NCBI GenBank assembly: GCA_030390025.1
Contig: CM059432.1
Coordinates: 53,136,001 to 53,200,000 of the forward strand
Direction of reading: 5' to 3'
DNA from: Squalus acanthias
Taxonomy: Eukaryota
DNA length: 64,000 nt
This document shows, piece after piece, positions 19,861 through 45,829 of the stretch. Each line of letters begins with the position of its first letter. The stretch's first letter is position 1. A program made the translations under genes and the position numbers. The notes under the pieces are model-generated. The model was given only the letters and a program-made list of their open reading frames with translations, did no database searches and was not told the DNA's origin.

Positions 19861-20158
19861 TTCATTTCTGTGTATGCTTTTATTGGAAATGTACTCAGGA
19901 CCTAAATTTATAGACCCTTTGACACTCCAGTCTGGGCATGTCAGAAAAGATCTATTTTTGCTGCTTCCACTTCACTAGAGAGGTTGTATTGAAGTTTTGC
20001 TATCTGCTCAGGCTGACATGCAGACAATCTCTATCACAGGGACTCGACATTCGATCGTGCCCAAAAACGGGAGCACAGTGGGGCGGGGCGCACGCTGCAC
20101 GCACCTGTTCATGTGGATGCAGAGATCACAGGAAATTTGTGATGGCAGCTTATCATCA

Positions 20159-20319
20159 TTGTGAATTCTGGGAGATTCTCTCACAGCTACCTTACCTGAA
20201 GAAGGAGCGAACAGCTCCGAAAGCTTGTAAAATTAAATAAATCTGTTGGACTATAACCTGGGTGTTGTGCGACTTCTGATTTTTGTCCACCCCAGTCCAA
20301 CGCCGGCATCTCCACATCA
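20159..20319 (+). mobile_element. Solo 161-bp pLTR fragment of PLE family A
   Basis: Near-identical to 37208-37327 plus the 3' tail. Flanked by an 8-bp duplication TATCATCA (20151-58 / 20320-27). Confidence 0.9.
20192..20230 (+). ncRNA. Minimal type I hammerhead ribozyme (PLE family A)
   Basis: TTAC-CTGAAGA-A-GGAGC gaaca GCTCC-GAAAGCTT-GTAA. Confidence 0.85.
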
Positions 20320-22019
20320 TATCATCACGAGACAGCTGAGCAGCCAATGCTACTCGTGCTGCTTATTGGCTGCGCACCTGTTTGCGAGGGGGTGGGGGGT
20401 GGGGTGGGGGGGATATTGGGCGTCATTGATGCCACTTAAAGGCAACCTGCACCCCTTAAAGGGGAAGCGCACTGTGGCTGCAGGCTGCAGGAAAGGCTTG
20501 AAACTGAGTGACATGTCTGGAAGAGCTGCGGATAGGTCCCTCCGATTCTCAACTGCAGCAAGCACATTCTCAAAATAGCTCACAAGGCTACTGCTAACAC
20601 ACTCCCTTCATTCTTGCAGAAGGTGCCACTTAATTTGAGAGAGCAGACAGGAGGAGGGAAAAGCCGCCTACACATCATGTCGCCACTGGAGGAGCAGGTC
20701 CTGGAGATGACGGGCATGGGACGAGTCATGGCTGTAGCTAGTGACAATGCTGGAGGAGAGGTCCTGCATGGTTTCTTCACACCTTACCCTCTTTTTCCTT
20801 TTATACTTCGCTCACCCTGCACACTCTGCATGACAAACTGAAGCTGCTAACCCTTGACACTAAAAAGCTAACCTTTGTCCTCCTCTTTCTTCTCAGGTGC
20901 AGACAATGTAGAGGTTCCCTGTACAGTTGAGAAAGAGGAGGCCAGCCTTCCTGAAAATGTAACCTCACTCAATCTGACCATAGCAAGCATCAGTGCAGAG
21001 ACTGGCACCAAGCATTCTTCAGAGAGTAGGTAAGAGCATGGTCACCGGCCCCAATTGTGCAGGAGCTAGGGCAGGGGGATGAGATGGCACAGGATCCAGC
21101 TCACTGGAGGGCGAGATCACATCCTAGCCTTGCTTCAGAAGACTCAGATGTTGACTGTGAAGACCTAGACTATTGAAGAAGGCTAGTGGCGATACACCAG
21201 GTAATGCTAGATGCACTGTCATCCTGCCAGCGAGCTTGCATGCAATGTCACAGAGCATGAGGAGTCCAGTCAGAAATTACAAAAAATTCTTCCCAGAACT
21301 CACAATTCAGTTGCCCAATGGAGAAAATAGCCAAAAAAAAGGCCAAAAAATTGACCAGCACCCTAAATGGAGACACCAGCAACTAACCTGTATTGAGGGG
21401 ATGAGGCCTGTAAATAGCATTCCCATAGTGTCCTTTTAGATCATTAGTGGCAAGATTTGCTGGGCAAGTTTATCATGTGGTGACTCAGACACTAGGCAGA
21501 CCAATTTCACAAAAAGTGTCCTACAACTAGCGTAAGACTCTTATTTAAATATTATAATGAAGTTTCTGCATGCTTCCTGTGTGTACCCTGCGTCTACGGG
21601 GTGGCTAATCGAAAATGTCAGGCGGCGCACTTGTAGTGTGCATTGCCTGCAATATTGAACCCCTAGCTGCCCATTTCATGACTGAGAAACGGGCACAGCG
21701 CGATCGAATTTCTAGGTCAGTGAATGTTGCTACACCATTAAACTTTTATGCTACTGGATCCTTCCAAACTACTGCAAAGGATATCTTCTTGATCCACCAG
21801 TCTGTAGTCCATAGATGTATCAAGAAAGTAACAGATGCTATGTTTGCAAGGGACAAAACCGTCATCTCTTGGCTGTGGAAAGGTAGCATCAGCCAAGCAG
21901 AACACAGAACTTTACTGGGTGGCAGGGTTTCTAAGAGCCAGGGCATATAGGTACCACCATTGCAGCTATCAGGGCTTCACACATCAACCACACTACCTGT
22001 ATGAACAGAAAGGGCTTCC

Positions 22020-23413
22020 TTCTTCTACTTCTTCTTCTTCTTCTTAGGCAGTCCCTCAGAACCGAGGATGACTTGCTTCCATGCTAAAAATGAGTTCTCA
22101 GGTGACTGATGAGTCCAATGCGGGACCTACAGTCTCTGTCACAGGTGGGGCAGACGGTGGTTGAAGGGGCAGGTGGGTGGGGTGCTTGGGTTGACGTGCG
22201 CTCCTTCCGCTGTTTGTGCTTGGCTTCCGCTTGCTCCCGGCAAAGAGACTTGAGGTGTTCGGCGCCTTCCCGGATGCTTCTCCTCCACTTTGTGCAGTCT
22301 TGGGCCAGGGATTCCCAGGTGTCAGAGGGGATGTTGCACTTTTTCAAGGAGGCTTTGAGGGTGTCCTTGAAGTGATTCCTCTGCCCACCTGGGGCTCTCC
22401 TGCCATGTCGGAGCTCCGAGTAGAGCGCTTGTTTTGGGAGCCTCGTATCGGGCATGCGGACGAAGTGGCCCGTCCATCGGAGCTGATCGAGCGTGGTCAA
22501 AGCTTCGATGCTGGGTATGTTGGCCTGAGCGAGAACACTGACGTTGGTGCGCCTATCCTGCCAATGGATTTGCAGGATCTTGCAGAGGCAGCGTTGGTGG
22601 TACCTCTCCAATGCTTTGAGGTGCCTGCTGTACATGGTCCATGTCTCTGAAGCATACAGGAGGGCAGGAATCACTACTGCTCTGTAGACCATGAGCTTGG
22701 TGCTGGGTTTGAGGTCCTGGTCTTCAAACACTCTCTTCCTCAGGTGACCGAAGGCTGCACTGGCACACTGAAGGCGGTATTGGACTTCATCATCGACATC
22801 TGCCCTTGTTGACAGGAGGCTCCCGAGGTATGGAAAGTGGTCAACGTTGTCCAAGACCTCGTCATGGATTTTGATAATCGGGGGGCAGTACTGTGTGGCG
22901 GGGGCAGGTTGGTAGAGGACCTTTGTCTTATGAATGTTTAGTGTAAGGCCCATGCTCTTGTACGCTTCAGTGAAGTTGTTGACGATAGTTTGGAATTCGA
23001 CCTCCAAGTGTGCGCAGACGCAAGCGTCGTCTGCATACTGTAATTCGATGACAGAGGATGGGACGACCTTGGATCTGGACTGGAGGATACGGAGGTTGAA
23101 CAGTTTCCCGTTTGTTCTGTAAATTAGCTCCACTCCAGCGGGGAGCTTACTGAGGGTTAGATGGGGCACTGCAGTAAGGGAGATCGAGAAGAGCGTTGGT
23201 GCGATGACACAGCCTTGCTTGACCCTGGTCCGTACGTGAATTGGGTCTGTGGTGGATCCATTGGTCAGGATCACGGCTTGCATGTCATCGTGAAGCATGC
23301 GGAGGATGGTGACAAACTTTTGGGAGCAGCCGAATTTGAGGAGGACACTCCATAATCCCTCACGGTTGACGGTGTCGAAGGCCTTTGTGAGGTCAAAGAA
23401 GGCCATGTACAGC
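22020..23413 (-). mobile_element. 5'-truncated RTE LINE
   Basis: Uninterrupted ~440-codon RT C-terminal ORF (DLTKAFD, KQGCVIAP, YADD, C-terminal CPTC...HLRTH finger). (GAA)n 3' tail. GCTTCC duplicated at 22014-19 / 23414-19. Confidence 0.92.
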
Positions 23414-26197
23414 GCTTCCATTCAATTGCTGTCTGACCACAGAAACATCATAACACAGGTAATTGTCCATTCTCCCAGAATGCCTTTATTATGTGGCAAT
23501 CCACACATTATTTGAAGGCTCAAGTAGGCAGAATAGAAAACTGCTCAGAGATCAGGGCTACCCTCTACAGCTATAGCAAATGATGGCACTGAGAAGATCC
23601 TGAACAATAACAGTGTACATCTGTCAACTAAAATTATAGGAAATCATTAGGATACTTAAGCAAAGATTCTGTTGATTGCACTGTTCAAATGGAGTGCCCC
23701 ATTACAACCCAGCAAAGGTGTCCAAAATAATTGTGCTTGTTGCACAAATTCACAATACAAAGAAAAACAAGACGAAGAGGATGCCAATAGTGCTACAGCA
23801 GAGAGGGTGAGGAGGAAGAAAGGGAGGATGCAGAGGTGCTGTCAGGAAGATTGATAGGCAAGCAGTTCAACAACAAAGTTGCTACATTGCGCTTGGTACA
23901 CTGCAATATGTAAATCCATCATACATTGCTGCTGAGAGGTTAGAAGTGCGCTGCTGCATATTCTCCTATAACCCTTGCAGAATGTTCAGCACAGCCTCAG
24001 AAGATGTCATGAAGACTTTTACACAGTGGTTATTTGTATTCTGAAGGCAGATCCAGTAGGGTCTTAGTCCCTTGCCCCTGCAGCAGAGGGACATCTGAGG
24101 CTGCTGCTTGCTATTCTTCCACTGCCATCTTGCTCCTTCTCACTTGTGAGGGTTCAAATTTGTTATGAAAATGTTGTGGCATGTGTGGATGTGTGGTGGT
24201 GCTTGCAGGAGGTGGAGTGTGTGGCACAGGCTTCTGTGCAGAGGTCGGGTCCTAGTTTCTATCAGTGGCTGCTCTGTCATCTTGGGACGACCCTATAGAA
24301 AGGTAAAAAGATGGGTGTGGGGGGGGGGGGGGTGAAATTAGATTTGGCATGAAAATGAGCGTGGGGATTGCGATGCACGATTTGGCCGTGCCCGTTGAAA
24401 GTGGTGCAGGCAGCACTCAAAATTCGTGCTGCCTGCTCATTATAATGATTGGAGCGCTGAGCTCAGCGCAAAATGTGCTGCTGGTTGGATCACCCAAGCA
24501 CATTGCAACACACTCACTAACACACTTCATCTTCTCTTGCAGGCCAAGGTGGCTCACAACCGTTGTGAGCAGCAGCAGCGGTGCTGCATGTCAGCACAAC
24601 CTTACTGTGCTAGAGGAGACTGTGCTTGAGATAGGGGCCATCACTGAGGCCGTGGCGAGCAGCGAGGTTGAAAGAATTGATGATGACAGTATGCTCATAT
24701 CTAATCCTTCTTCTCACATCCCACTTTCCCCTCATCGCATAATCTCTTCTCACTTACAAGCTGCTGATGGTGTAAGCATGTACATCTTGCTTTCCCCCCC
24801 CCATCTCCCCTCACCACAACCTGATCCTTGTGCCTTTCTCCTTTCAGATACCCAAGAACTGCCAGCAGCCCAGCCTGTCAACGATCTAGTAGAGGAGGAG
24901 AGTGAGGGAGAAGTAGAGGCACCATCATTCAATCTGACACTCCCAGGCACCAGCTCAGAAAATGGCACTGTGTGGTGTGAACGTTAGACGGTAGTATAGA
25001 GGCAGGATCTGCACGTAGTGAGTCACCTGGCACAAATGGACTGCAGCCAGGCCAGAGGGAAAGGCTAGCTCAGGTGCCACCTCCCCGGAGGGCGAGTTTG
25101 CATACGAATTCTGCTGCACAGGACTCAGATGAGGACTTTGATGGGGCGGCCTTCAGAAGAAGGGTGGTGGGCATGCACACAGAAATGCTTGGTGCAATGG
25201 CAAGTCTGCCAGAGAGCCTCTTGTCAGTGTCAAGGAGCATGGAGGAGTCTGGCTCCAATATTGCACAGAGCTTTGCGCAGAGCTTGGAGCCCATGATTTC
25301 CAGGATGGAAGTGATGGGCAACTCTATTAGAGCAGTTGTGAACCCAACCATGATGCAGGATGTGATGGACGATGTCTCAGCTTCCATTGCAGCACAAGCG
25401 GAAGTGACCCAATGTCTGAGTGCTGCAGTGGAAGCTCAGACTTCTGTCAGGTAGGCCCAGCTTGCTGCTACACAAGCTCAGACCCCTCTCATGCAGTCTG
25501 AACTTGGGTTTACAAGTGTGGAAAGGGGCTTGCAGGGTCTCACAGCAGACCAGCAATCTGTCCTCCAACAGATAGCTAGGAATCCTGAGGCACCGCACCG
25601 GGGGAGTGTCAGTGGCTCCATGGAGCAAGAACCTGCTGTCCTCTCTCAGGATGACAGCATTCATACTCCCACCGCTACCACTCTGCCAGTGTCCTTGCTG
25701 GTGCCTGTCAGCCAGCCAGCCCTGACTGCTGCCAGCCATTCCTAGGGGAGCAGTCTACAGCCGGGCCTTCTAGGCCCAGAGCTGGTCGAGGTTGTCCTGC
25801 AAGGCCATTTGCAGTGACCCCATGGAATATCAGCAGCCATGCCGCAGCCACTGGGGTAGCACTGCCTAGGAGCACTAGAATAGGCACAGGAACACGAAAG
25901 ACAGATACTAAGGAAATGCACAAGGGTGATTAGTTGACTTTGTTATGAAAAATTCAAAATAATCGTTTATAAATTATGTTTGGAATGTTTGTTTTGCGGT
26001 GGCTTTCATTTCAACTTCGTGCCCAAGAGGATGTTGTGATGTTCCGTGACAGAGGGATGGTAAGCTGGGGAAGTGTTGAGCAATGGGGATCTGGGGTTTC
26101 ATTCACTGGAACGGAGTCTGATCATGTATTCATGGACAGCTGCTCCTCTTTCTCCTCCTCCTCCTCCTGAGGTGGTGGCAGAACCTGTGTTGGCAAG

Positions 26198-26370
26198 CAA
26201 TGTTCCCTGTAAGCAGCGCTTTATTCACCGCGGCCTGTTTCTTAATGCCTGGTCCCTTTAAATTTCTGCGCATGCGTGGTATTTACAATGTAAATGTCGG
26301 TGAGTGGCCTGCGCGGGACCTTGCAGATTACTGCACGGCTGGGTGCGTATGCAGCTTAGGGGAAACATTG
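26198..26370. mobile_element. 173-bp hAT-like MITE
   Basis: TIR CAATGTTCCCTGTAAGC / GCTTAGGGGAAACATTG; 8-bp TSD TTGGCAAG / GTGGCAAG (7/8). Confidence 0.75.
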
Positions 26371-26379
26371 GTGGCAAGG

Positions 26380-27305
26380 GCTATACCCTCATGATGGCCA
26401 AATTGTGGAGGATGCAGCAGACTACCATGAAATGGGACACCCGCTCCGGCGAGTACTGGAGGGCTCCTCCCGAGCAGTCAAGGCAGCAGAACCATTGCTT
26501 CAGCAGCTCGATGGGCTGCTCGATGAGGTTCCTCATGGCAGCATGGCTGTCATTATATGACTGCTGGCCACGAGTGGTGGGTTGCAGAGGGGGTCATCAG
26601 CCAGGTACAGAGTGGATAGCCCTTGTCTCCGAGCAACCACCCTTGGGTTTGATGTGGTGGCTGGAAGATTGCTGGCACAGCAGACTGGCGCAGGATGAAG
26701 GCATCATGACTGCTGCCAGGATACCCGGCATTCACCATGATGTGCTGGCTGTGGTCACACACCAAATGCACATTAAGAGAGTGGTAGCCTTTGTGGTTGC
26801 GGTACATCTCAGCTATCCTGGCAAAGCCACATGTGTGCTCCTCCTGCTTCTCTCTGTTCAGAGAGAAGACAATGAAGTCCCTTCTCCTGGTGTACAGAGC
26901 CGCTGTGACCTCCCAGATGCAACGGTGGACGGGGAACTGGGAGGTGTTAGCTAAGTCGCCTGATCCAGAGTAGAAGGATCCGATGGTGATAAAATTCAGA
27001 GCCACACTCAACTTGAAGGCCACTGGAAATGCCGTCATGGCCCTGCTCTGAGGCTGCAGGTCTGGTTCCAAGAGGTTGCAGAGTTCTGTGACCACTTCCT
27101 TGCTGAAGCGGAGCCTCTGAATACACTGCTCCACAGGTGGAAGAAGTGCTTTCGGACGACCCTAGGTGGGTAAGGCCAACTACTGAGAGCCTTCCTGCCC
27201 CTCCTCCTCCTCCCTCTGTGAGCAATTTGTCCTCTTCTTTGCTGCCTCTGCTCCATCTCCCTGTCAAGCTGCAGCACGAGGGGGACTGCAAATAGAGCCC
27301 CCATG
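26380..27305 (-). pseudogene. Harbinger (HARBI1-like) DDE transposase pseudogene
   Basis: Homologous to 51052-52212, with an internal deletion of the IDCTH region and frameshifts. Confidence 0.8.
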
Positions 27306-28817
27306 ACTGGGAGCAAGTGGTCTGACCAGAACCCTTCAATTCAGAAGCAAGGCCTTTTCCACTTTCACTCCCTGTCACCTCACCAACTTTAAATAACTCT
27401 AGATAGCTTGAAACTGTTATACAAATGATCGTTTTAATTATCGCTGGTGTGGGGTCCCTTGTGCAGCTGAACGCACGCTCAGCTGTGTATGCTGTGGAGA
27501 GGGCGTACAGTCTAATGGCGACATCCAAATCAGCAGGCCGTGCGTTATATCAGTGTTCCACGCTGATTGACATCACAATCTCCCTGATTTGCATTCTTCT
27601 GCCGAACACAGGCAATGGCTGTGCTACCGACCTGCCCTAAATGGCGACTGCCACGGCCCTCACTGGAAGTGGCCGGAAGCGAGGTGGCCGCCATTTCTCT
27701 GCCGAAACCAGCTTTAAACGCCGGCACTAAGAGGGGAAATTTTGCTGCCGAGTTATAAGTGTTTCAGGATGGAAAACCTTCTAAAGAGAAGTAAGATGCC
27801 AAGATATTGGTCCAATTCCCAGCTCCCCACTCCATCTGGGTGCATATTAGGCAGAGCGCTACTGGTGTGCACTCTGCCTGATATGACCTGGATTCCTGGG
27901 GTCAGGTCATTAATGTTAGTTAGCCTGACATACTATGCCATAGCCCTACTCCTTGGCAGGGGCTTTCACGCAAAATCAGAGAGGGAAATCTAGCCACTGC
28001 TACAGGCATAGGCCTACAGCAGCAGTAATTACACCTGTCTATGATGCCTTCTAGCTACTGTTTTCCCTTTGTCCCCAAGTCCTAACTAGTATATTACTTC
28101 TTAATGCTATTAGAGTGTTGGAATTAGCATCCAAGACCTAGAGAGATGCCTATTCATGCAACATGATGAGAGATTCTTGTTGATCAGTCCACTACATGTG
28201 TCCATGAAATGGCCTCTTACAGCAGGGAGATCCAGTGTTTTGAATTTCTACTGGACTTCTGATTCTGAAAATTTGCCGTTTCTCCACAGATGTTTATTGG
28301 TCGCTGGGGGGTGGGTGGGGGGTGGGGGTGGGGAAGGCGGTGGAGTCTGAGGAGATTGGCGGTATGTTAAAGTGAGCATACTTCCCCTTCATATGTAAGC
28401 AACATATTAAGAGACCAAGACAATGAAACATTTCTTTACTTGTCCATCACTCTAATCCATGGAATGGGACATTTCTCAAAACTTCATACATGCTAATAAA
28501 GTAACTGAGTAAAAGAAAAAGTAACTGAATATAAATTGTATATTTTATCCATGAAACCGTATTGTAATTTTTGCAGCAACCACAATGTTGATGCATTCTT
28601 TTAAAATTCACAAGGGCTGGTTTTCTGTCGGCGGAGAACCTTGCCTATCAGCTGCACAGATCAAGAACAATTGCATGAAGTATTACCACTTGGGTGAGGT
28701 ACTAAAAGGTGTTTGTACTGATGGCACTGGATCCCAGGAGAGGGGAGTAAACTGGTGAAAAAAGAAAAAAATATCGCTTATTTTTTTCTGACTTCAAAGC
28801 AATAAAATTTATTTACG

Positions 28818-31031: not shown

Positions 31032-31662
31032 ACTGTTTCTTGAATGCACAATGTTATGTAAGAACCTACAAACAGTTTTAAAGTTTTATATCATCTTCTT
31101 GGAATCTTAAGTTGCCTTAACCAAAGGCACTTTTCTCAGATCATTATTGTGATCGTTAATGATGCTTTATTCAGTGAGGTCTTACCAAAGTCTTTAAAAT
31201 GAGCTTCTAGTGCAGCATGCTTTAAGACGATTTTTCTTAATCTTATTTCGAATCATAGGGGGAGAAATTCGATATAGCCCCGTTTGGGGCGCTAAAACTT
31301 TAAGGGGGAATAATTAGGTCGCGCCCCATTTGGGGCGCAAATATCGTCTGGACGCAAATATTAGCGCCTGGCGCTAATTATCGGCACTGACTGGAAACTT
31401 CACTTTACCGCCCCGGGAGGTGAGTGGAGCGCTAAATCAGGCGCTGCACACCTGTCTTAAGGCGCAAAGGCCGAGCAGTGAGGCGCTAACTCAGCGCGCG
31501 AGCGCAGCGCAGCTGCTGCCAGTTAGCGAGGGAACACAGACACACTGGCGCCGGCCACTTCTTAAAGCGGGGGGGGGCCAACTTGCTCCCCAGCCACACC
31601 CTGCTCATTGCAGCCTTGAATCTCGGCCTGGAGAGACCTGTGAATCCATTTTGCTGCCAAGG

Positions 31663-34600
31663 ATGGAGAGGGTGAGAGAACGAGCTCATCGCTTCACCGA
31701 GCGGGCCTTGGATGCTCTGGTTGGCGCGGTGGAGCGCAGAAGATGTATACTCTTCCCTGAGAGTGGCAGGAGGTCTTTGCCACGCGAGTTCAGAAGAGTG
31801 TGGAGGGAGGTGGCTCAGAGCATCTCCTCCAGGAGCATGGTGCCCAGGACCCATACTCAATGCCGCAAAAAGTTCAGTGACCTCACTCGAGTCGTCAGGG
31901 TGAGTGGCTTTTTCTCAATACCTCTCCATCCCTCCATCTCAACCTCACTCTATGGCCAGAGGGTCTTAAAACCCCAATGCACAACACTCATCCAACACCT
32001 ATGGCCCTTTCATGAAACACACACACACATTCCACACTTTGCATACAGTAAGGGCTATTCACCTATGGGAGGCACATCAGGCAAGACCATGGCTGCATAC
32101 AGTAAGGGCTATTCACCTATGGGAGGCACATCAGGCAAGACCATGGCTGTATATTTACTCAGATGCTGTCCTTTTTCTTACATGATGTGGAGATGCCGGC
32201 GTTGGACTGGGGTGGACAAAAATGAGAAGTCGCACAACACCAGGTTATAGTCCAACAGATTTATTTAATTTTACAAGCTTTCGGAACAGTTCGCTCCTTC
32301 GTCAGGTAAGTTAGCAGTGAGAGAATCTCCCAGAATTCACAATTTAAACACAGACAAAATATATTCAAATCTTTCCTACATCAAAGAGCACAGCCAAGAC
32401 AATGAGATGTGTCCCAGGGGGTCCAACGTGTCAAACCACCTGCTGGCTGCATATCCTGTCAATCTGTGTAGGTTCTTGTGTTAGTCTTTTAAAAAAAAAA
32501 ATACCTGGGAAGACCGGCCATGATGTCAAGTCACGTTCTGTATCGTGACATGAACCCGATATCGCGATTGAGGCCATCCTCATGAGTGCGGAACTTGGCT
32601 ATCAGTTTCTGCTCTATGATTTTGCGCTGTCGTGTATCTCGAAGGCCGCCTTGGAGAACGCTTACCCGCATATCCGAGGCTGAATGCCCCTGGCTGCTGA
32701 AGTGTTCCCCGACTGGGAGGCAACCCTCCTGCCTGGCGATTGTTGCGCGGTGTCCGTTCATACGTTGTCTCAGTGTCTGCATGGTCTCGCCGATGTACCA
32801 TGCTCTGGAGCATCCTTTACTGCAACGTATCAGGTAGACAACGTTGGCCGAGTCACATGAGTATGTACCGTGTACCTGGTGGGTAGTGTCCTCACGTGTG
32901 ATGATGGTATCTGTGTCCATGATTTGGCATGCCTTGCAGAGGTTGCCGTGGCAGGGTTGTGTGGTGTCTTGGTTGCTGTTCTCCTGAAAGATGGGTAATC
33001 TGCTGCGAACGATGGTACTTTTGAGGTTAGGCGGCTGCTTGAAGGCGAGTAGTGGAGGCGTGGGGATGGCCTTAGCAAGGTGTTCGTCGTCATCGATGAC
33101 ATGTTGAAGGCTGCGAAGAACATGGCGTAGTTTTTCCGCTCCGGGGAAGTACTGGACGACGTAGGGTACTCTGTTGGTTGTGTCCCGTGTTCGTCTTCTG
33201 AGGAGGTCTATGCGGTTTTTCGCTGTGGCCCGTCGGAACTGTCGATCGACGAGTCGAGCGTCATATCCCGTTCTTACGAGGGCGTCTTTCAGTGTCCGTA
33301 GGTGTCCATCGCGTTCCTCCTCGTCTGAGCAGATCCTGTGTATTCGCAGGGCTTGTCCATAGGGGATGGCTTCTTTAACGTGGTTAGGGTGGAAGCTGGA
33401 GAAGTGGAGCATCGTGAGGTTGTCCGTGGGCTTGCGGTAGAGTGAAGTGCTGAGGCGTCCGTCTTTGATGGAGATTCGTGTGTCCAAGAATGAAACCGAT
33501 TCTGAGGAGTAGTCCATGGTGAGTTTGATGGTGGGATGGAACCTGTTGATGCTATCGTGTAGTCCTTTCAGTGATCCTTCGCTGTGGGTCCAAAGGAAGA
33601 AGATGTCGTCGATGTATCTGGTGTACAGCGTTGGTTGGAGGTCCTGTGCAGCGAAGAAGTCTTGCTCGAACTTGTGCATGAAGATGTTGGCATATTGGGG
33701 TGCGAATTTGGTCCCCATGGCTGTTCCGTGTGTTTGGGTAAAAAAATGGTTGTCGAAGGTGAAGACATTGTGGTCAAGGATGAAGCGGATGAGTTGTAGG
33801 ATGGCGTCCGGAGATTGGCTGTTGTTGGTGTTGAGTACTGAGGCTGTCGCAGCGATGCCGTCATTGTGGGGGATATTGGTGTAGAGTGCCGATACGTCCA
33901 TTGTGACGAGGAGTGTTCCTGGTTCAACTGGTCCATGGGTGCTGAGTTTCTGCAAGAAGTCTGTAGTGTCGCGACAGAAGCTGGGGGTTCCCTGTACGAT
34001 GGGTTTCAGGATGCCCTCGACGTACCCAGAGAGGTTCTCACACAGGGTTCCGTTGCCTGATACGATAGGACGTCCGGGTGTGTTGGCTTTGTGTATCTTT
34101 GGGAGGCAGTAAAAGTCTCCTACGCGGGGAGTACGTGGGATGAGAGCGCGCAGGATGTTTTGAAGGTCTGGATCGAAGGTCTTGATCAGTCTATTGAGTT
34201 GGCGGGTGTGTTCTTTGGTCGGATCTGCGGGTAGCTGTCTGTAGTGTTCCTGGTTGTCCAGTTGTCGGTATGCTTCTTTGCAATAGTCCATTCTGTTCTG
34301 TATGACGATGGCTCCTCCTTTGTCCGCTGATTTGATGACGATGTTGCGGTTGGTCTTGAGTGCGTGGATGGTGTTGCGTTGTGCTCGGGTGACATTCTGG
34401 ACTGTCTTGTGAGTACGGCTGATGAATCTGGCGTTGATGCATTTCCTGACAGCTTGAGCATACATGTCAAGCTTAGGGTTGCGACCCTCCGGAGGGGTCC
34501 AATTTGACTCTTTCTTCCTCGGTTGTAGCACTGCGGTTCCCTCTGTCTGCTGTTCCGGATCATTGATTGTCCCATTAGGAATGTTGCTGACATCTTGGGA

Positions 34601-37600
34601 TTTGTGGTAGTATTCCCGGATCCTCATTCTCCTGATGAATTCCTCTGTGTCCGCCGCGAGACCGATGGGGTCCATTTTGGTGGTGGGGCAGAACTTGAGC
34701 CCTCGGGCGAGAACTTCGATTTCGTCTGGTTGAAGGGTGTGGTCCGACAGGTTGACGATGGACTTCCCTGTGGTTGCAACCGTGGTACCGGGGGAGGCTT
34801 GGTTGTAGCTGGTGGTTACGCCGAGTTTCTCAAGCTTCCTGTTCTTGATGCGCATGTAGGCAGCGTAGTTCCGTTGCCTCGTCTGTTTGGCGGTGTCTCG
34901 TAGCTGGTCTGCTGTGTCCTGAGCACAGGCTGAGAGCATGGACTCTATCTTGGTTTCAAGGTTGCGACGTCTGCTGTAGAGCTGGTGTACGAGATGGTTG
35001 AGGAGTGTGCGACAGGTACGATGGCAAAGTCTCTCAGCGTAGTCTGTGTTGTATGTCGACTTGAGTGGGTTCGTGATCTGTAGTCCTTTCGGAATCTTGT
35101 CTGCTTTCTTGCATCTCTGCAGGTACTTGATGTCTGTGTCAATATGCGCGATCTTCTTGGCGATTCTCTCCACTTTGAGCCGGCAGTTTGCGGTGTCAAT
35201 AGAGGTCATGATGTGGAGATGCCGGCGTTGGACTGGGGTGGACAAAAATGAGAAGTCGCACAACACCAGGTTATAGTCCAACAGATTTATTTAATTTTAC
35301 AAGCTTTCGGAACAGTTCGCTCCTTCGTCAGGTAAGTTAGCAGTGAGAGAATCTCCCAGAATTCACAATTTAAACACAGACAAAATATATTCAAATCTTT
35401 CCTACATCAAAGAGCACAGCCAAGACAATGAGATGTGTCCCAGGGGGTCCAACGTGTCAAACCACCTGCTGGCTGCATATCCTGTCAATCTGTGTAGGTT
35501 CTTGTGTTAGTCTTTTAAAAAAAAAAATACCTGGGAAGACCGGCCATGATGTCAAGTCACGTTCTGTATCGTGACATGAACCCGATATCGCGATTGAGGC
35601 CATCCTCATGAGTGCGGAACTTGGCTATCAGTTTCTGCTCTATGATTTTGCGCTGTCGTGTATCTCGAAGGCCGCCTTGGAGAACGCTTACCCGCATATC
35701 CGAGGCTGAATGCCCCTGGCTGCTGAAGTGTTCCCCGACTGGACGCCATCCTACAACTCATCCGCTTCATCCTTGACCACAATGTCTTCACCTTCGACAA
35801 CCATTTTTTTACCCAAACACACGGAACAGCCATGGGGACCAAATTCGCACCCCAATATGCCAACATCTTCATGCACAAGTTCGAGCAAGACTTCTTCGCT
35901 GCACAGGACCTCCAACCAACGCTGTACACCAGATACATCGACGACATCTTCTTCCTTTGGACCCACGGCGAAGGATCACTGAAAGGACTACACGATAGCA
36001 TCAACAGGTTCCATCCCACCATCAAACTCACCATGGACTACTCCTCAGAATCGGTTTCATTCTTGGACACACGAATCTCCATCAAAGACGGACGCCTCAG
36101 CACTTCACTCTACCGCAAGCCCACGGACAACCTCACGATGCTCCACTTCTCCAGCTTCCACCCTAACCACGTTAAAGAAGCCATCCCCTATGGACAAGCC
36201 CTGCGAATACACAGGATCTGCTCAGATGAGGAGGAACGCGATGGACACCTACGGACACTGAAAGACGCCCTCGTAAGAACGGGATATGACGCTCGACTCG
36301 TCGATCGACAGTTCCGACGGGCCACAGCGAAAAACCGCATAGACCTCCTCAGAAGACGAACACGGGACACAACCAACAGAGTACCCTACGTCGTCCAGTA
36401 CTTCCCCGGAGCGGAAAAACTACGCCATGTTCTTCGCAGCCTTCAACATGTCATCGATGACGACGAACACCTTGCTAAGGCCATCCCCACGCCTCCACTA
36501 CTCGCCTTCAAGCAGCCGCCTAACCTCAAAAGTACCATCGTTCGCAGCAGATTACCCATCTTTCAGGAGAACAGCAACCAAGACACCACACAACCCTGCC
36601 ACGGCAACCTCTGCAAGGCATGCCAAATCATGGACACAGATACCATCATCACACGTGAGGACACTACCCACCAGGTACACGGTACATACTCATGTGACTC
36701 GGCCAACGTTGTCTACCTGATACGTTGCAGTAAAGGATGCTCCAGAGCATGGTACATCGGCGAGACCATGCAGACACTGAGACAACGTATGAACGGACAT
36801 CGCGCAACAATCGCCAGGCAGGAGGGTTGCCTCCCAGTCGGGGAACACTTCAGCAGCCAGGGGCATTCAGCCTCGGATATGCGGGTAAGCGTTCTCCAAG
36901 GCGGCCTTCGAGATACACGACAGCGCAAAATCATAGAGCAGAAACTGATAGCCAAGTTCCGCACTCATGAGGATGGCCTCAATCGCGATATCGGGTTCAT
37001 GTCACGATACAGAACGTGACTTGACATCATGGCCGGTCTTCCCAGGTATTTTTTTTTTTAAAAGACTAACACAAGAACCTACACAGATTGACAGGATATG
37101 CAGCCAGCAGGTGGTTTGACACGTTGGACCCCCTGGGACACATCTCATTGTCTTGGCTGTGCTCTTTGATGTAGGAAAGATTTGAATATATTTTGTCTGT
37201 GTTTAAATTGTGAATTCTGGGAGATTCTCTCACTGCTAACTTACCTGACGAAGGAGCGAACTGTTCCGAAAGCTTGTAAAATTAAATAAATCTGTTGGAC
37301 TATAACCTGGTGTTGTGCGACTTCTCACTTTTTCTTACAGGCCAAGCTGGCGCATAATCGGAGACAGCAGCAACGGACGGGTGGAGGGCGGCCTCAGCTG
37401 CAACCCCTCAGCGATCTTGAGGAGCGCGTCCACAGGATTGTGGCAAGCCGGGTGATCGGTCCTGTCGCCACTGGAGACGCCGACCCCGTTCTGGACAGCA
37501 ATAGTAAGGTCATCACCTTTTTGTCCCCTGTCCTTCCACTTGTCCCTCACAACACCAGCCTTTGACACTTTCAATCCAACTTGCTAACTCGCTGCACTTA

Positions 37601-38465
37601 TTCCTCCCTTACTGCCACCCTGTCCTCACGCTAAAGCCACTCTTGTACCTCCCTGCTTTCAGATGGTGATTCACCAGCTGAGGAGACGGGCCCTGAAGCT
37701 GCCACTGGGAGTGATGCTGCAGCTGAGGAGGAAGAGGAAGCCGGAGCATCAGTGCCACCCTCTCCCGAGGAAGCCCATGCCCACACTGGGAACACGCCTT
37801 CCCTGGAGGGGAGCAGGGGGGAAGGGTCTGATGAGGGTGAAGCTCCAGGACCCAGCGGGCTGCAGCAATGCCATGAGGGTAGGGAAGAACGGGGGCCTTC
37901 TCCCCAGAGGGAGAGTATGCCAGACACTCCTACTGCAATGGACGCAGAGGAGGAGCGGCTGATTGCAGAAATGAACAGCCAGGCGGTGGGCATGCACACT
38001 GAGCTCATGGGTGCAGTGGGAAGGGTGCCCGAATGCATTGAGGCACTGGCAAGGAGTGTGGAGCACTTCGCTGTAGCACAGGCGGATGCCACACTAACGC
38101 TTAGTGCTGCAATTCAGTCACTGGCTGCCGTGATCCCATCTCTGACTGCTCTCATGCAGACTCAGATTGAGGCCACGCGAGCACAGACTGCTGCCAACCT
38201 CGATGGTTCGTTCACATGTCCCTGGGGCTGTCACCGCGCCGCAGCAGGCCAGCAATCTGTTCTCCAGCAGATTGCTCCGGATGCTGAAGTGCTGCCCCGT
38301 GGGAGTGCCAGTGTGTCGGGCGAGCAGGGAGTTGCTGTCCTCTCTCACGATGACAGCATTCCTGCTGCCAACACTGTCACTTCTCCACTGCACTTGCCAC
38401 CGCCTGTAGGACAGACTGCTGCCGCCCATGCAGAGTTGGTGCAGTCTGCAGCCGGGCCCTCTTAG
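31663..38465 (+). CDS. Harbinger Myb/SANT-like DNA-binding protein, 3 exons (31663-31899, 37341-37503, 37663-38465); premature TAG removes the last ~58 codons
   Basis: Myb motif RF...LDAL...W..VA...RTHTQCRKKFSDL. GT-AG junctions give a continuous frame of about 400 aa. The ancestral stop is at 38637-39 by comparison with copy 2. Confidence 0.8.
32041..32148 (+). repeat. 54-bp tandem repeat, 2 units, in Myb intron 1
   Basis: GCATACAGTAAGGGCTATTCACCTATGGGAGGCACATCAGGCAAGACCATGGCT x2. Confidence 0.95.
32271..32309 (-). ncRNA. Hammerhead ribozyme, 3' pLTR
   Basis: TTAC-CTGACGA-A-GGAGC gaact GTTCC-GAAAGCTT-GTAA on the minus strand. Confidence 0.88.
32531..35209 (-). CDS. Intact PLE polyprotein (RT + Cys linker + GIY-YIG endonuclease), ~892 aa from the first ATG
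   Basis: Open frame with KSADKG, LPKIHK, RPIVS, MDVSALYT, GTAMGT, RYIDD, PCHGNLCKAC linker and VVYLIRC...YIGET...R...H...E...GLN. Confidence 0.95.
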   Translation of the reverse strand: MTSIDTANCRLKVERIAKKIAHIDTDIKYLQRCKKADKIPKGLQITNPLKSTYNTDYAERLCHRTCRTLLNHLVHQLYSRRRNLETKIESMLSACAQDTADQLRDTAKQTRQRNYAAYMRIKNRKLEKLGVTTSYNQASPGTTVATTGKSIVNLSDHTLQPDEIEVLARGLKFCPTTKMDPIGLAADTEEFIRRMRIREYYHKSQDVSNIPNGTINDPEQQTEGTAVLQPRKKESNWTPPEGRNPKLDMYAQAVRKCINARFISRTHKTVQNVTRAQRNTIHALKTNRNIVIKSADKGGAIVIQNRMDYCKEAYRQLDNQEHYRQLPADPTKEHTRQLNRLIKTFDPDLQNILRALIPRTPRVGDFYCLPKIHKANTPGRPIVSGNGTLCENLSGYVEGILKPIVQGTPSFCRDTTDFLQKLSTHGPVEPGTLLVTMDVSALYTNIPHNDGIAATASVLNTNNSQSPDAILQLIRFILDHNVFTFDNHFFTQTHGTAMGTKFAPQYANIFMHKFEQDFFAAQDLQPTLYTRYIDDIFFLWTHSEGSLKGLHDSINRFHPTIKLTMDYSSESVSFLDTRISIKDGRLSTSLYRKPTDNLTMLHFSSFHPNHVKEAIPYGQALRIHRICSDEEERDGHLRTLKDALVRTGYDARLVDRQFRRATAKNRIDLLRRRTRDTTNRVPYVVQYFPGAEKLRHVLRSLQHVIDDDEHLAKAIPTPPLLAFKQPPNLKSTIVRSRLPIFQENSNQDTTQPCHGNLCKACQIMDTDTIITREDTTHQVHGTYSCDSANVVYLIRCSKGCSRAWYIGETMQTLRQRMNGHRATIARQEGCLPVGEHFSSQGHSASDMRVSVLQGGLRDTRQRKIIEQKLIAKFRTHEDGLNRDIGFMSRYRT
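35297..35335 (-). ncRNA. Hammerhead ribozyme, 5' pLTR
   Basis: Identical to 32271-32309; lies about 90 nt upstream of the ORF ATG. Confidence 0.88.
35741..37327 (+). mobile_element. Inverted 5'-truncated copy of the PLE (ORF fragment to 37019)
   Basis: Reverse complement of about 32223-33809, with only about 3 substitutions seen by eye. GG microhomology at the junction. Confidence 0.95.
37241..37279 (+). ncRNA. Hammerhead ribozyme, inverted pLTR
   Basis: TTAC-CTGACGA-A-GGAGC gaact GTTCC-GAAAGCTT-GTAA. Confidence 0.88.
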
Positions 38466-38951
38466 CCCAGAACTGGTCGAGGCCGTCCTTCAGGGGCATC
38501 TGCAGTGTCAGGGTCTGACGAGCAGCAGCCTTCCACCAGCCTTGCTGCAGCCACTGAGGTCCCATTACGGAGGAGCAGTAGGGTTAGAAGGGGGGAAGTG
38601 CGCAAGGGAAGGAGATCACCCTCGAAGGGCAAAAAGTAGGAGGTGTGACAAAATGCTGGTCATTTTTTTATTAAAGGTCGAGGTTCATGGTCCATCTTTT
38701 GTTTAGTGTTTTGGACATTATCTCCAGGTTGTGAGAACCAGTTATGTTATTGACTGTTTTTTTGTGTTTATTTCTATGAGTTTGTCATGAGGAATTGACA
38801 CACACAGAGTTTGTAAAATAAATAAGTTTCTGTATTCAAAATATACATGGTTGGTGGTTGGAATTATTGGTGCCTTGGCCGGCTTAGGGGTTGCGTGCTG
38901 GGTTCATTAATGTTGTTAGCAATGGCAGAAGCCATTTCCACAGCAGGGGCC

Positions 38952-40113
38952 CTAGAAGCGGCTTGCTATTAGCCGTTGACGGACGGCCCTTGCAGTTTCA
39001 CCATTGTGTGCCGCCCTCCCGCCTTGGTGCTGCTGATGATCATCCTCCTCGTCCTCTTCCTCCTCTTCCTCCTCCTCCTCTGGTGGTGCTTCAAGTGCCT
39101 GGTGGCATTGGCTTGGTCCTGAGGATTGCCATGTTATGCAACATGCAGCACACGACTACGAAGTTGGATACTCGCTCAGGCGAGTACTGCAGGGCTCCTC
39201 CAGAATGGTCGAGACAGCGGAACCGTTGCTTCAGCACGCCGATTGTGCGCTCAATTATGTTCCTGGTAGCTTGATGGCTCTCATTGTACCGCAGCTCAGC
39301 AGGGGTGTTGGGCGTACGGAGCGGTGTCATCAGCCAGGTGCTCAATGCATACCCCTTGTCCCCGAGAAGCCAACCAACTGGCTGATGCGGTGCCTCGAAA
39401 AGTTCTGCCACAGTAGTCTGGCGCAGGATAAAAGCATCGTGGCAGCTGCCAGGATAGTGGGCATTGACAGCGAGTATCAGCTGTCTGTGGTCACAGACCA
39501 ACTGAACATTCAAGGAATGGAACCCCTTTCTGTTCCGGAATTCCTCGGCATTCTCATGCGGAGCACGCAAAGCCACATGCGTGCAGTCAATGGCGCCCTG
39601 CACCATGGGGAAGCCCGCTACCCTCGCAAAGCCCAGAGCGTGGTCACGCTGCTTGTCTGGGGTCATGGGGAAAGAGATGAACTCTCATCTCCTTTTAAAG
39701 AGGGCATTTGTGACCTGCCGGATGCAGCAATGCACCGCGAACTGGGAGATATTGGCGAGGTCCCCAGCAGCAGCTTGAAATGAGCCAGTAGCGTAAAAGT
39801 TGAGAGCCACTGTGACCTTCACTGCCACCGACAGAGACGTCCTGGACCTCAGTTGAGGCTGCAGATCTGGCTGCAGCAGGTGGCAGAGCTCAGTGACCAC
39901 CTCCTTGCTGAATCGCAGCCTTCGCAAACACAGCTCCTCAGACATATGAATGTAGGAGAGCTGTTCACGATATACCCTGGGAGGGTAAGCTCTCCTGTAC
40001 ATACGCCTGTTGGCCCTCCTCCGTCTGGCCATCATTGCCACTCTCTCTCTGCGTCTCTGTATCCTCCGATTCAGCTGGAGCAGGACGACGCCCCCAATCA
40101 GTGCAGCCCCCAT
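38952..40113 (-). pseudogene. Harbinger DDE transposase of copy 1 (nonsense at 39685-87, frameshift near 39095)
   Basis: IDCTH, HDAF, GDKGY and IERTIG motifs present. CGA>TGA relative to copy 2. Confidence 0.9.
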
Positions 40114-41870
40114 AGTCTCTTTGCAAGCAAAGTAATGAAGGACAGCAACTAAAGTACTAGCGAAGTTAGGATCAATAGGCAAAACTACCTCACAAAGCAT
40201 TGAGTCAATGCAGAAGTCTCTCTTTCTCTCTCTCCGAATCTCTCTCTCTCTCTCAGAACGAGTGGTGCAAAAATGTCGACCACAGAAAAAGACAGGAAGA
40301 GGCCCCCTTTAAATAGCGCCCCCCCCCAGCCCCACAGCGATTGATAGCGTTCCAGTCTTCCGGTCGTTGGATGCGCCAGACGGTAAGGCAGGGGGCTCCA
40401 CTCAATTTCCGCTCCAGGGCGCCACAAGGGCGTTGCACCATGGAATGACGTCACAATCTGCGCGCGCAGGTGGTCGCAGCGGTAAGTTTTAGCGCCGCTG
40501 CACAATCTCTAGTTAAGTTCCCGAGCGGCGCAAACATCGCTGCGCCCGGGCGTTAGCGGCTTTGCGCCCCATTAGCGCCCTCTTAAGGCGCTAACGGGAG
40601 GCGCAACCAACTGAATTTTTACCCCTAATCGTTGAAAAATTAGCATCAGGGGAGTGGAGCGCTAAATCAAGTGCTAACCATTTCTCTTAGGGCGCTAAAG
40701 TGTGTGAGGGGGCAGTAGCGCAGAGCGCTGAAGAACATGCATCAGAGGCTCCTTCCCTCGCTTAAAGGGACAGGCCAATGATGGTTTGCAACATTCTTCT
40801 TCTTAGTTCTGTTGGGCCAGGGGACCTGCGCAACTTCTATTACAGCCCAAATCATTCTCAGAGAGTGGAGGGCTTAGGCATCGTGCAGCAATGAGGCTTC
40901 AAAAACTTTCAGCAGGCACCAGGCTGGTGCGAAGAATAAAGTTTGGCCTATCTGACCACCACTGCCTTTAATTATTGCTCCCCAAGCGGCCAGCTGAGGT
41001 GACAACGCCTCCTGTTGCTGCCGTTGTTGACACCTGGCGATGCAGCAGGGGACGGGAGCAAATTTCACATTCGGGGCGGTAACGGGGCGTTGCGCACTTG
41101 ACGACGTTACGACCTACGGGGCGCTAGAGACTGAGGCGGTAAGTGTTAGCGACAGGGGAGTTCGTGGGCGTCGCTGAATTCGCCGCGCCCGGTCGGTAAC
41201 CCCTTAGCGGCCCATTACCATCACCCGTAGGCAATAACGGGAGGCACAAAGCAGCCGAAGTTCTAGCCCATAGGATCATAGAATGGCTACAGCACAGAAG
41301 GCGGCCATTCGGCCCGTTGAGCCTGTGCCGGCTCTCTGCAAGAGCACTTCAGCTAGTCCCACTCCCCCGCCATTTCCCCGTAGCCTTGCAAATATTTTTC
41401 CTTCAGGTACTTATCCAACTCCCTTTTGAAAGCCATGATTGAGTTTGCCTTCTCCACCTTTTCAGGCAATGCATTCTAGATCCTAACCACTCACTGCATA
41501 AAAAAGTTTTTTCCTCATGTCACCTTTGGTTCTTTTGCCAATCACCTTGAATCTGTGTCCTCTGGTTCGCGACCCTTCCACTAATGGGAACAGTTTCTCT
41601 CTATCTATTCTGTCTAGACTCCTCATGATTTTGACTACCTCTATCAAATCTCCTCTCAACCTTCTCTGCTCTAAGGAGAACAACCCCAGCTTCTCCAGTC
41701 TATCCATGTAAATGAGAAGTCCCTCATCCCTGGAATCATTCTCGTAAATCTTTTATGCACCCTCTCTAAAGCCTTCACATCCTTCCTAAAATGCGATGCC
41801 CAGAATTGGACACAATACTCCAGCTGAGGCCGAACCAGTGTTTTATAACTTCCTTGCTTTTGTACTCTAT

Positions 41871-44226
41871 GGCCGGGATCTTACCTGAAGAGGCGCGTTG
41901 GGGGCGGGACTGGTGCCTTTCGGGTTCTAGTCCAGCCCCCAGTGACGTCCGACGCACAGGTGCTATTTTGCATCAATTGGCCTTGTTAAGCCCGCCCTGC
42001 GGGCTTGCTGGCCAATTAAGAGAAAGCCGGTGTCAGATGACGTCAGTTGATGACACGTCATCTGCCGGTTTTCTTAAAGAGGCCACCACCATTTCTTTTT
42101 AACAGATGATTTTTTTCAGTGTTTTACAGCATTGAGGTGCTGCAAACACTGACAATCACTGTACAAAGGTGAGACCTTGCACCTAGGCTCTCCAGTGACT
42201 CTCTCCTTAGGCTAAAACGGATGGCAGCTGCAGGTGAGGTTACAGAAGCGATCTGTCACTGGTGAGAGACGTTCTCCAAATGAGGTGGGACGACACAAAC
42301 ACTTCAAAGCTTGTTACGTACAGAAAATTCTAAACACATTAAAAATGACTTTCCCAACACTTTCTTACCTCTGCAACTCACCAGTGTCCCATTGGATCCT
42401 TCACACCACTTCTGCAGCTGTCATCTGTACACAAACATTACAGTCAACCCACAGCACACCACACTTACCCTGGCAGGGTTTCCTGACATCGGGAAGCCCG
42501 CAGTAGAAGTGTCAAAATTGGAAAAAGCATCTTAACTGCCTGTTAACTACCTGTTAACAAGCAGTTAAGTGGCTATATTCTTCTTCCCGCCGCTAGGAGT
42601 TGGGTTCCTGTGCAAATCGGGGACCCGATTCCCGGGAAGATTGATTGGAGGCGGGTTGGAAGCAGGTTCGGGACCCGCTGCCAATCATTTTGATTTTGCC
42701 AGCAGTCCAAACCCTGAAGGGATAATTACAAGTCCTAGCCCTTTCGGACTACCCCAGATCAGGCGTATTCCCCAGACGTTCACCTTCAACTAAAGTTAGC
42801 AGTAGCCGGATTCTATAAGATGCTTAATTGGGTCTAAAGGCCAGACTACCTCTCCCTAAAGGAAAGAAACGGTCTGAAGATGTTACCATCCTCCGGATAG
42901 TACTTTTAATAAGTTTAACTAGACTGTAACCTTTCGGATATTATGAGGGTCCGGAATACCCCCCAAAATTCTGCAACTCCTCACTGAAGAGTGTACAGAA
43001 ATTGAGTTCACGAGTTTATGCAGAAATACTCTGTGAGACAATTCTATAAATATATAGATTTATTAAAGAACCGACATTTAGTTAACATTTAGTTATGGCA
43101 ATCGCAACTTTAACAGTTCAAAATACAAATAGCTTACATTTCTTATCAGAGATCCTTATTCTCAAATCTTAACTTCGTTCCATTTCCACACTTCTACTTA
43201 TTTCTTAATCCAGAATATCCACCAAAATCAAATACCTTGATTACCCGAGACTCAGTTAAAAACTTACAGAGCGTGCCTGTGAAGTTGAGAAACGCTTGCC
43301 TTCCCAGCGACTTCTGACTTTTCATCTGAAAAGCTCTTATTTTTATATCTTTTTTTGGTGGTTTATCCTTTGAAGTTTTCCTGCTGATGTAAGCTAATTG
43401 TCTCAAGTCATTCTCTATTGAATTGTTTTCTATTCTTACTGTCGTTTCAGCTGTTAGCTTTTAGACTTGTCTCCTGCTTAGGTGTTTCAAAAACCATCAT
43501 AAAAAATAATATGACAGTAGTATTTATTTGATGTGATTCTTAAGAAGTCTTTCTATTGAATTTCTAATATAATTTAACTACTTATAAGCCAGACGTCATG
43601 TCTCCTAACTATTCCATTTTCAATACAAACACAATGTAATTGCTTGGTGTCATCTATTGATATTATATTTTCAAAGCCTTTCTGTAGGTATATTTTACAA
43701 CTTGTAAATTTAAAACACTTCTCTTAGGGTGTTTACTTGTTTTCTTGCTATCTCAATTGGTTGCATATTTAATCATGTTTCCTGTTTCTAAGTTTAACAT
43801 AAAACTATTTTACGACAGGTATTTCTTTTACCTGATGTCATTTTTTCAAAGGCACTTGGTTTTTTTAATGTTCTGTGCACCTGTTCGACATGTTAGCTTT
43901 CGACACTTTACTTGGGTCACTCCTATTGTCTTGTTCCAAATTCTAGACATTCTGGAAGCACCAATGGTTTGCTTCAATAGGGGCTTTGTCTCTGTCAATA
44001 TCCCATTCCCATTTCAAAGCTTGTTTTCACAGCTTTGTGTTAACAACTGATCTTATCTCATAAGCCTGTATTTCTGTTTTACGGCCTGTGTCGCCGAGGC
44101 TTTCAGATTTTTAACCCCAGTTTGTCATGTTTTAATGTTATCAAATCTGTTTAAAGGATGATATATTTCTTGGAATATGGCTATTTCCTTCACAACCGAC
44201 CCCTGAGCACCGTCAAAATCACCCCC
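41871..44226. mobile_element. Non-autonomous DNA transposon (Harbinger-like) hosting a solo LTR
   Basis: TAT TSD (41868-70 / 44227-29). Removal restores CR1 GTACTCTATGCCTCTATT. Imperfect TIR. Confidence 0.7.
42715..44194 (-). mobile_element. Solo LTR family 2 (1480 bp)
   Basis: TG...CA termini, ACCC/ACCG 4-bp TSD, homologous to 50197-55928 in opposite orientation. TATA-like and AATAAA motifs on the minus strand. Confidence 0.85.
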
Positions 44227-44244
44227 TATGCCTCTATTTATGAA

Positions 44245-44464
44245 AATGAGAAGTCGCACAACACCAGGTTATAGTCCAACAGATTTATTTAATTTTACAA
44301 GCTTTCGGAGCTGTTCGCTCCTTCTTCAGGTAGGGTAGCTGAAGAAGGAGCGAACAGCTCCGAAAGCTTGTAAAATTAAATAAATCTGTTGGACTATAAC
44401 CTGGTGTTGTGCGACTTCTCATTTTTGTCCACCCCAGTCCAACGCCGGCATCTCCACATCATGA
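44245..44464. mobile_element. 220-bp fold-back (hairpin) PLE family A mini-element with two hammerhead cores
   Basis: ~87-bp perfect inverted arms (44243-44329 / 44339-44425). 14-bp duplication CCTCTATTTATGAA (44231-44 / 44465-78). Confidence 0.92.
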
Positions 44465-45829
44465 CCTCTATTTATGAAGCCCAGGATCCTGTATGCTTTT
44501 TTAACCGCTTTCTCAACCTGCCCTGCCACCTTCAATGATTTGTGCACATGTACCCCCAGGTCTCTGTTCATGCACCCCCTTTAGGATTGTACCCCTTAGT
44601 TTTTATTGCCTCTCCTCATTCTTCCTACCAAAATGTATCACTTCGCACTTTTCTGCGTTAAATTTCATCTGCCATGTGTCTGCCCATTTCACCAACCTGT
44701 CTATGTCTTCTTGAAGTCTATCCCTATCCTCCTCACTGTTCACTATACTTCCAAGTTTTGTGTCATCTGCAAATTTTGAAATTGTGCCCTGTACTCCCAA
44801 GTCCAAGTCATTAATATATATTGAGAAAAGCAGTGGTCCTAGTACCGACCCCTGGGGAACACCACTGTATACCTTCCTCCAGTCCGAAAAACAACCATTC
44901 TCCACTACTCTTTGTTTCCTGTCACTTAGCCAATTTGGTATCCATGCTGCCACTGTCCCTTTTATTCCATGGGCTTCAAGTTTGTTGGTAAGCCTATTAT
45001 GTGGTACTTTATCAAACGCCTTTTGGAAGTCCATATACACCACATCAACTGCATTGCCCTCATCAACCCTTTCTGTTACCTCATCAAAAACTCGATTAAG
45101 TTAGTTAAACACGATTTGTCTTTAACAAATCCGTGCTGTCTTTCCTTAATTAATCCACACTTGTCCAAGTGGCTGTTAATTTTGTCCTGGATTATCATTT
45201 TTAAAAGCTTCCCCACTACCAAGGTTAAACTGACTGGCCTGTAGTTGCTGGGTTTATCCTTACACCCTTTTTTGAACAAGGGTGTAACATTTGCAATTCT
45301 CCAGTCCTCTGGCATCACTCCCGTTTCTAAGGAGGATTGGAAGATTATGGCGAGTACCTCCGCGATTTCCTCCTTAACCTCCCTCAGCATCCTAGGATGC
45401 ATCCCATCCGGTCCTGGTGACTTAGCAACTTTAAGTTCAGACAGCCTTTCTAGTACCTCCTCTTTATCAATTCTTATCTCATCCAGTATCTTCATTACTT
45501 CCTCTTTCACTATGACCTCCTCTTTCACTATGACTTATTTGTATGTATGATAGTGCTTTACAATAGGTACACCAGGAGGTTTGAGACAATTCCTTAGTCT
45601 AGCCCATTCCTTGTAACTAACTGGCATGATTACTTGATTGTTCTTTTTGCCTTAAAACTAACGCTGTATCTCTCATCTCATTCTGGGGTTGATTGTGAAG
45701 GGGAGGGCAGGGCAGGGGGGCTCAATATCCCTGAATTAAAATTCAATCTAGTCTAAGGGTTTCTTCGTCACTTACTGATCAGCTAAACTCAGTCCTCCGA
45801 AATACTTTTTGACAGTATAACTCGTACAA

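Follow-up and report, generated by a model that had tools for sequence, protein, structure and literature searches.

Hammerhead motifs with an inserted A in Squalus acanthias: probable minimal type I ribozymes of a young Penelope-like retroelement

The closest described relatives of the motifs analyzed here are the minimal hammerheads of metazoan Penelope-like elements (PLEs). As presented by Cervera and De la Pena (2014, PMC4209133), these belong to type I and have a short stem I, an additional nucleotide that separates position 9 from 10.1, a G10.1-C11.1 pair and a loopless, palindromic 15.1-16.1 segment, and they occur in both pLTRs, about 3 kb apart, as well as in many lone or opposite-strand copies. 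The consensus given in that work is CUGANGAH, and its search descriptor permits “a possible extra N10”, followed by GAAANNUH. Cutting by a dimer of minimal hammerheads was proposed there and weakly demonstrated in vitro, with very low activity. For the Neptune group of PLEs, the description by Craig et al. (2021, PMC8557442) includes a reverse transcriptase (RT), a CX2-5CxxC linker between the RT and the endonuclease (a linker common to Nematis and Naiad), a C-terminal GIY-YIG domain, a partial tandem arrangement, an inverted neighbour copy and a tail of 30-40 bp. A tail of this length at one end of PLEs is likewise described for PAc, a Poseidon element of Anolis, which has a hammerhead near the start of its open reading frame (ORF) and two zones of RT initiation that yield the tail (Frangieh et al. 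2024, PMC11167929). Outside this group of elements, the plus-strand hammerhead of chrysanthemum chlorotic mottle viroid (CChMVd) carries an A between A9 and G10.1 within a full monomeric viroid ribozyme with tertiary loops; in the measurements reported for it, the extra A moderately slows trans cleavage, C and G being worse and U faster (PMC3705267). Among the papers listed by our literature searches, none dealt with hammerheads of shark PLEs; one preprint describes tandem retrozymes in one cartilaginous fish.

Here, we describe six hammerhead motifs in a stretch of 64,000 nucleotides of the Squalus acanthias genome (GCA_030390025.1, contig CM059432.1, positions 53,136,001 to 53,200,000 of the forward strand), hereafter the window, in which position 1 is the first nucleotide. 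These are very probably minimal type I hammerheads borne by the terminal repeats of a Penelope-like retroelement that is young and likely belongs to the Neptune group; the extra A is the nucleotide normally inserted in motifs of this class, and selection on the transposing lineages has likely kept it there. The motif is of a known kind in its known form, and what is new is confined to the family, its intact young copy and the counts across the genome. An intact, very young vertebrate PLE with two identical tandem hammerheads offers a clean substrate for studying the role of weak ribozymes in transposition, and the genome count shows how densely a shark genome can be loaded with such motifs.

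All six motifs of the original prediction are present as CUGANGA-A-stem II-GAAA, but the positions it quoted are motif ends, except for 44339, which is the C3 nucleotide. They are the following:

20192..20230, plus strand: minimal hammerhead, subfamily 2 (N7 = A); C3 at 20196, extra A at 20203, cut predicted to follow 20226; without a neighbouring copy on the same strand
32271..32309, minus strand: minimal hammerhead, subfamily 1 (N7 = C); C3 at 32305, extra A at 32298, predicted cut after 32275
35297..35335, minus strand: minimal hammerhead, subfamily 1; C3 at 35331, extra A at 35324, predicted cut after 35301
37241..37279, plus strand: minimal hammerhead, subfamily 1, within an inverted copy; C3 at 37245, extra A at 37252
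44295..44333, minus strand: minimal hammerhead, subfamily 2; C3 at 44329; stem I of 3 bp with a C-A mismatch at 2.4-1.4; buried in a fold-back hairpin
44339..44373, plus strand: truncated motif that begins at C3, without the 5' arm of stem I

The motif runs from a stem I of 3-4 bp through CUGANGA, the unpaired A and a stem II with G10.1-C11.1 to GAA, AGCU, U17 and the second arm of stem I. Stem II comprises 5 bp, in which it differs from the minimal hammerheads as described in PMC4209133. The main architectural point, omitted from the original prediction, is the absence of loop III, A15.1-U16.1 being a bare palindromic AGCU. Five of the six motifs follow the type I order (stem I, CUGANGA(N), stem II, GAAANNUH, stem I), from which 44339(+), lacking stem I, departs. 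The motifs at 32305, 35331 and 37245 are identical to one another. Between the two subfamilies, the differences previously listed at N7 (C or A), at the last base of loop II and at 10.4-11.4 (G-U versus G-C) are correct, but two more in the 5' flank, at positions -10 and -5 counted from C3, had been overlooked. The motifs are not chance matches, given that a descriptor search of the window together with 99 fetched loci returned 188 motifs, that three simulations of this DNA by an order-2 Markov model yielded none, and that a 32-mer family pattern matched 3,560 genomic sites compared with 0 in the control. The palindromic 15.1-16.1 segment is present in 184 of the 188 descriptor matches.

Because only three insertion events, from two sub-lineages, account for the six motifs, these are not independent of one another. 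Motifs 32305, 35331 and 37245 belong to one insertion, 44329 and 44339 to one fold-back insertion, and 20196 stands alone; each insertion is bounded by its own target-site duplication, of 8, 11 or 14 bp. The insertions and their parts are as follows:

20158..20320, plus strand: insertion 1, a solitary piece of pLTR that is truncated at the 5' end and has a tail; 8-bp target-site duplication 20151-20158 / 20320-20327
32181..37332, no single strand: insertion 2, a full element (32181-35742, minus strand) with an inverted 5'-truncated copy; 11-bp target-site duplication 32171-32181 / 37328-37338
32181..32716, minus strand: downstream pLTR of insertion 2; 0 differences to the upstream pLTR in 536 bp
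32531..35209, minus strand: intact 892-aa ORF with a DKG motif, RT, CX4CX2C linker and GIY-YIG motif
35207..35742, minus strand: upstream pLTR of insertion 2 (end of a truncated upstream copy)
35741..37332, plus strand: tailless inverted copy, truncated at its 5' end, with 4 differences over 1,592 bp
44243..44466, no single strand: insertion 3, two pLTR ends head-to-head in a fold-back; 14-bp target-site duplication 44231-44244 / 44465-44478

A paralogous empty site near 53813-53824 confirms insertion 2 as an event. This insertion landed inside a copy of a Harbinger-like DNA transposon, of which further pieces, coding for a DDE_Tnp_4 nuclease and a Myb/SANT protein, lie at 51052-52209(+) and 53700-54440(-), with related repeats at 31304-32180 and 37328-40254. 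In insertion 3, the segment 44243-44425 folds into one hairpin of -159 kcal/mol. The first 8 bases of its target site (44465-44472) are identical to the element's own continuation beyond the ATG, only one base being common in insertions 1 and 2; judged from the sequence, the match suggests priming that may have proceeded through pairing between target DNA and RNA. An Rfam match to mir-1597 at 44290-44378, which scored 52 bits against a cut-off of 93, corresponds to the fold-back palindrome and was rejected.

The RT domain of the 892-aa ORF was recognized above the cut-off by RVT_1 (E = 1.4e-8), with YIDD at 33605-33619. The CX4CX2C linker follows at 32927-32953 (residues 753-761), and a GIY-YIG motif, VVY..YIG, lies C-terminal to the RT, at 32789-32842. 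The Pfam GIY-YIG model did not match the 892-aa protein; for its C-terminal part, the Atlas neighbours comprise a cluster in which 31% of the members have PF01541, and many homologs of the protein carry PF01541. The closest named proteins are from shark, at 79-93% identity. The layout, with partial tandem pLTRs, an adjoining inverted copy and a tail of 30-40 bp, is that of endonuclease-positive PLEs. Among the fetched copies, the 3' ends cluster at -39 to -32 and at -1 to +5 from the ATG, about 36-40 nt apart, and these two clusters correspond to the published tail, which has been explained by two RT start sites (PMC11167929). The element likely belongs to the Neptune group, a placement based on the linker motif. 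It differs from PAc, as the latter is described, in that the PAc motif overlaps the ORF start whereas the shark motif sits about 90 nt upstream of it, and in the cysteine linker of the shark protein. About half of the element's words were found in five organisms among sequencing runs X1-X21, which points to near-identical elements in several species.

As the original prediction stated, an unpaired A separates A9 from G10.1 in all six motifs. Its description as a non-canonical variant does not stand, since an inserted nucleotide at this place is the published norm for the minimal hammerheads of metazoan PLEs (PMC4209133), and the CChMVd precedent, although correctly cited, is not the nearest comparison. 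The motif fits both the consensus and the descriptor of 2014. By our own count of Fig. S3 in PMC4209133, the extra base is present in 54 of the 56 rows and is an A in 30, including 10 of the 11 vertebrate rows; the turtle row shares the same extra A and the same AGCU-U, and no cartilaginous fish is among the 56. In the present material, the extra base is an A in each of the six window motifs, in 181 of 181 parsed copies selected by their flanks and in 188 of 188 descriptor matches. Genome-wide, a loose pattern gave 143,712 matches with A (803 in the control) and 2,678 with C, G or T (2,369 in the control), and a tight family pattern gave 3,560 matches with A and 4 without it. The loose-pattern matches with A, approximately 144,000, correspond to one per 26 kb and lie far above the 4,000 of coelacanth and 9,000 of Xenopus given in PMC4209133, which were counted differently; for the axolotl, 126,247 canonical hammerheads have been reported (PMC7229834).

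These counts, the shared insertion in CChMVd and the failure of a descriptor without the extra slot to find any of the six motifs are what could be said for the earlier reading of the A as a distinct new variant, akin to that of CChMVd and hidden from motif searches. We regard this reading as scarcely credible: as a novelty it is refuted by the publication in 2014 of the class norm together with a permissive descriptor (PMC4209133). The expectation that strict searches would miss the motif was borne out for the descriptor lacking the slot, but five of the six motifs are found once the slot is included, and the standard 2014 descriptor includes it. The Rfam hammerhead models gave no match at E <= 1 across the window and none at E <= 10 in six short loci, four of them natural copies without the A and two with it. 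Because copies with and without the A were missed alike, the minimal architecture, rather than the extra A, likely explains this blank.

Conservation within the genome was analyzed in 100 copies, all on contig C1, which were the first of 3,774 that a search with two flank anchors had located; as the anchors alone determined the selection, the choice of copies is independent of the ribozyme. The core was defined as 12 sites (the 11 catalytic nucleotides and the extra A), 7 sites were taken as free, and a change was considered shared when present in at least two copies. Shared changes affected 0 of the 12 core sites and 4 of the 7 free sites (p = 0.009), and the counts of shared and private changes were 0 and 5 in the core compared with 6 and 3 at the free sites (p = 0.031), the shared changes being concentrated at N7 and loop II. 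All three shared changes in stem II keep the pairing as G-U, with a chance expectation of 0.17-0.33 each; one shared change disrupts the outer stem I pair 2.4-1.4 in 35 of the 100 copies. In a wider flank-picked set, of which 181 of 192 copies could be parsed, pair 2.3-1.3 is U-A in 168, C-G in 10 and U-G in 3, and G10.1-C11.1 is found in 180 of the 181 copies, all of family A.

Recent common descent of young copies, with no selection on the fold, could also produce such uniformity: the element copies are 98-100% identical, core and 3' flank are equally invariant, and private changes do strike the core (5 in 100 copies). This explanation appears very improbable, given that the shared changes gather at N7 and in loop II, sparing the core, and that the pairing and the palindrome persist between families with about 30% protein identity. 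The comparison of core and flank substitutions originally put forward as a test has no discriminating power here (by sites, p = 0.35; for shared versus private changes, p = 0.13); the core is not significantly quieter than the flanks because the 3' flank is itself nearly invariant. Selection on the fold, the reading we prefer, is supported genome-wide at the level of element lineages, but the three differences between two lineages from which it was originally deduced could not show it. Selection likely acts on the transposing RNAs and probably maintains the extra A in their lineages, with inserted copies decaying at random. In the alignment of flank-picked copies, the N7, loop II and 5'-flank variants are mixed among sub-lineages, a pattern that suggests possible recombination or template switching between RNAs.

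A second PLE family is represented in the window by motifs at 2757(+) and 3002(-, decayed) and by ORF remnants at 1058-2467(+), which are 29-35% identical to the main ORF (28-39% across the examined remnants). The second family has the same extra A, different stems I and II with the pairing kept, and the palindrome ACGU instead of AGCU; at 10.1-11.1 it often has A-U or G-U rather than the usual G-C. The catalytic nucleotides are invariant across both families. Among 23 hand-picked lineage representatives, 8 of the 11 pairs change on both sides, and 97.6% of the cells pair, compared with 17-49% in slid controls; the same number of two-sided pairs was reached in 342 of 500 shuffles. As the rows were chosen by the core pattern and are related, the two-sided changes represent few events, not 62, and are mostly one event between the two families counted many times. 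The A is fixed as such in these two families, about 30% identical in protein, and the inserted base is A, C, U or G in other animals, so that one might think of the extra A as required in vivo, for example as a handle by which the element's protein switches cutting on. We consider this reading, under which the intact and very young copy at 32181-35742 would also be a vertebrate Neptune element that is still active, unlikely.

By analogy with the published systems, a lone motif would be unable to close helix III, and two motifs, held together by AGCU-AGCU pairing, would make up a double hammerhead that cuts slowly after U17. The element's own protein probably assists this step: in the anole element, cutting needs the protein (PMC11167929). 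In the window, only the tandem pair 35331/32305 could form such a dimer from one transcript, because the two motifs lie on the same strand of one unit, 3,026 nt apart; the other four would be passive by-products of truncated and inverted insertion. Two-strand folding does pair the palindromes, with the full double hammerhead at -12 to -18.5 kcal/mol. Of 99 loci of 9 kb, 9 contain two motifs on the same strand; in 51 the only pair is inverted, 35 have one motif, and 4 have none by the strict pattern. Most genomic copies are therefore likely inert.

Traces of cutting were sought among genomic copies beginning at G1.1. The 5' junctions number 21 at G12 (about 9 of them point mutants), 53 at U16.1, 27 at U17, 60 at G1.1 and 38 at U1.2, some rows being duplicates. 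The counts are uneven (chi-square p = 0.002), and there is no single peak at the predicted cut, the 60 junctions at G1.1 comparing with 53 at U16.1 (p = 0.57). This lack of a peak would be expected if the hammerhead-like fold were kept for protein binding or another structural role, with cutting vestigial, and several published observations agree with it: minimal hammerheads are very weakly active in vitro (PMC4209133), catalytic mutants of the anole hammerhead did not impair insertion in the in vitro experiments reported, where no RNA ends map to the cut (PMC11167929), and Naiad elements are described as spreading without the motif (PMC8557442). We nevertheless find vestigial cutting somewhat unlikely, since the catalytic nucleotides are free of shared changes and invariant in two families, and the anole motif does cut in the presence of its protein, with a C3G/G8C rescue that works (PMC11167929).

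No RNA data set appeared among the sequencing runs listed as containing the element. Contigs from presumed-RNA runs cover parts of the repeat and are uninformative on ends, strand and level; no poly(A) end and no splice joint appeared among the rows listed for them. On the minus strand, an AATAAA at 35287-35292 starts 10 bases past the predicted cut and is present in 188 of 192 flank-picked copies. Further along the same strand, 35233-35255 combines a word resembling a branch point with a pyrimidine tract and an AG, 24 nt before the ATG. From these signals, a pLTR intron may end here at its 3' side; its splicing would take the hammerhead out of the mRNA, and such a putative intron end would partly account for the near-invariance of the 3' flank. 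At 22087-23421(-), there is a piece of an unrelated LINE-type reverse transcriptase (RVT_1). In the genome junction listings, many 5' junctions of the element carry a short, repeated, AT-rich filler that is assembled from fragments of the element's own terminus and resembles the outcome of repeated slipping on the template or of untemplated addition.
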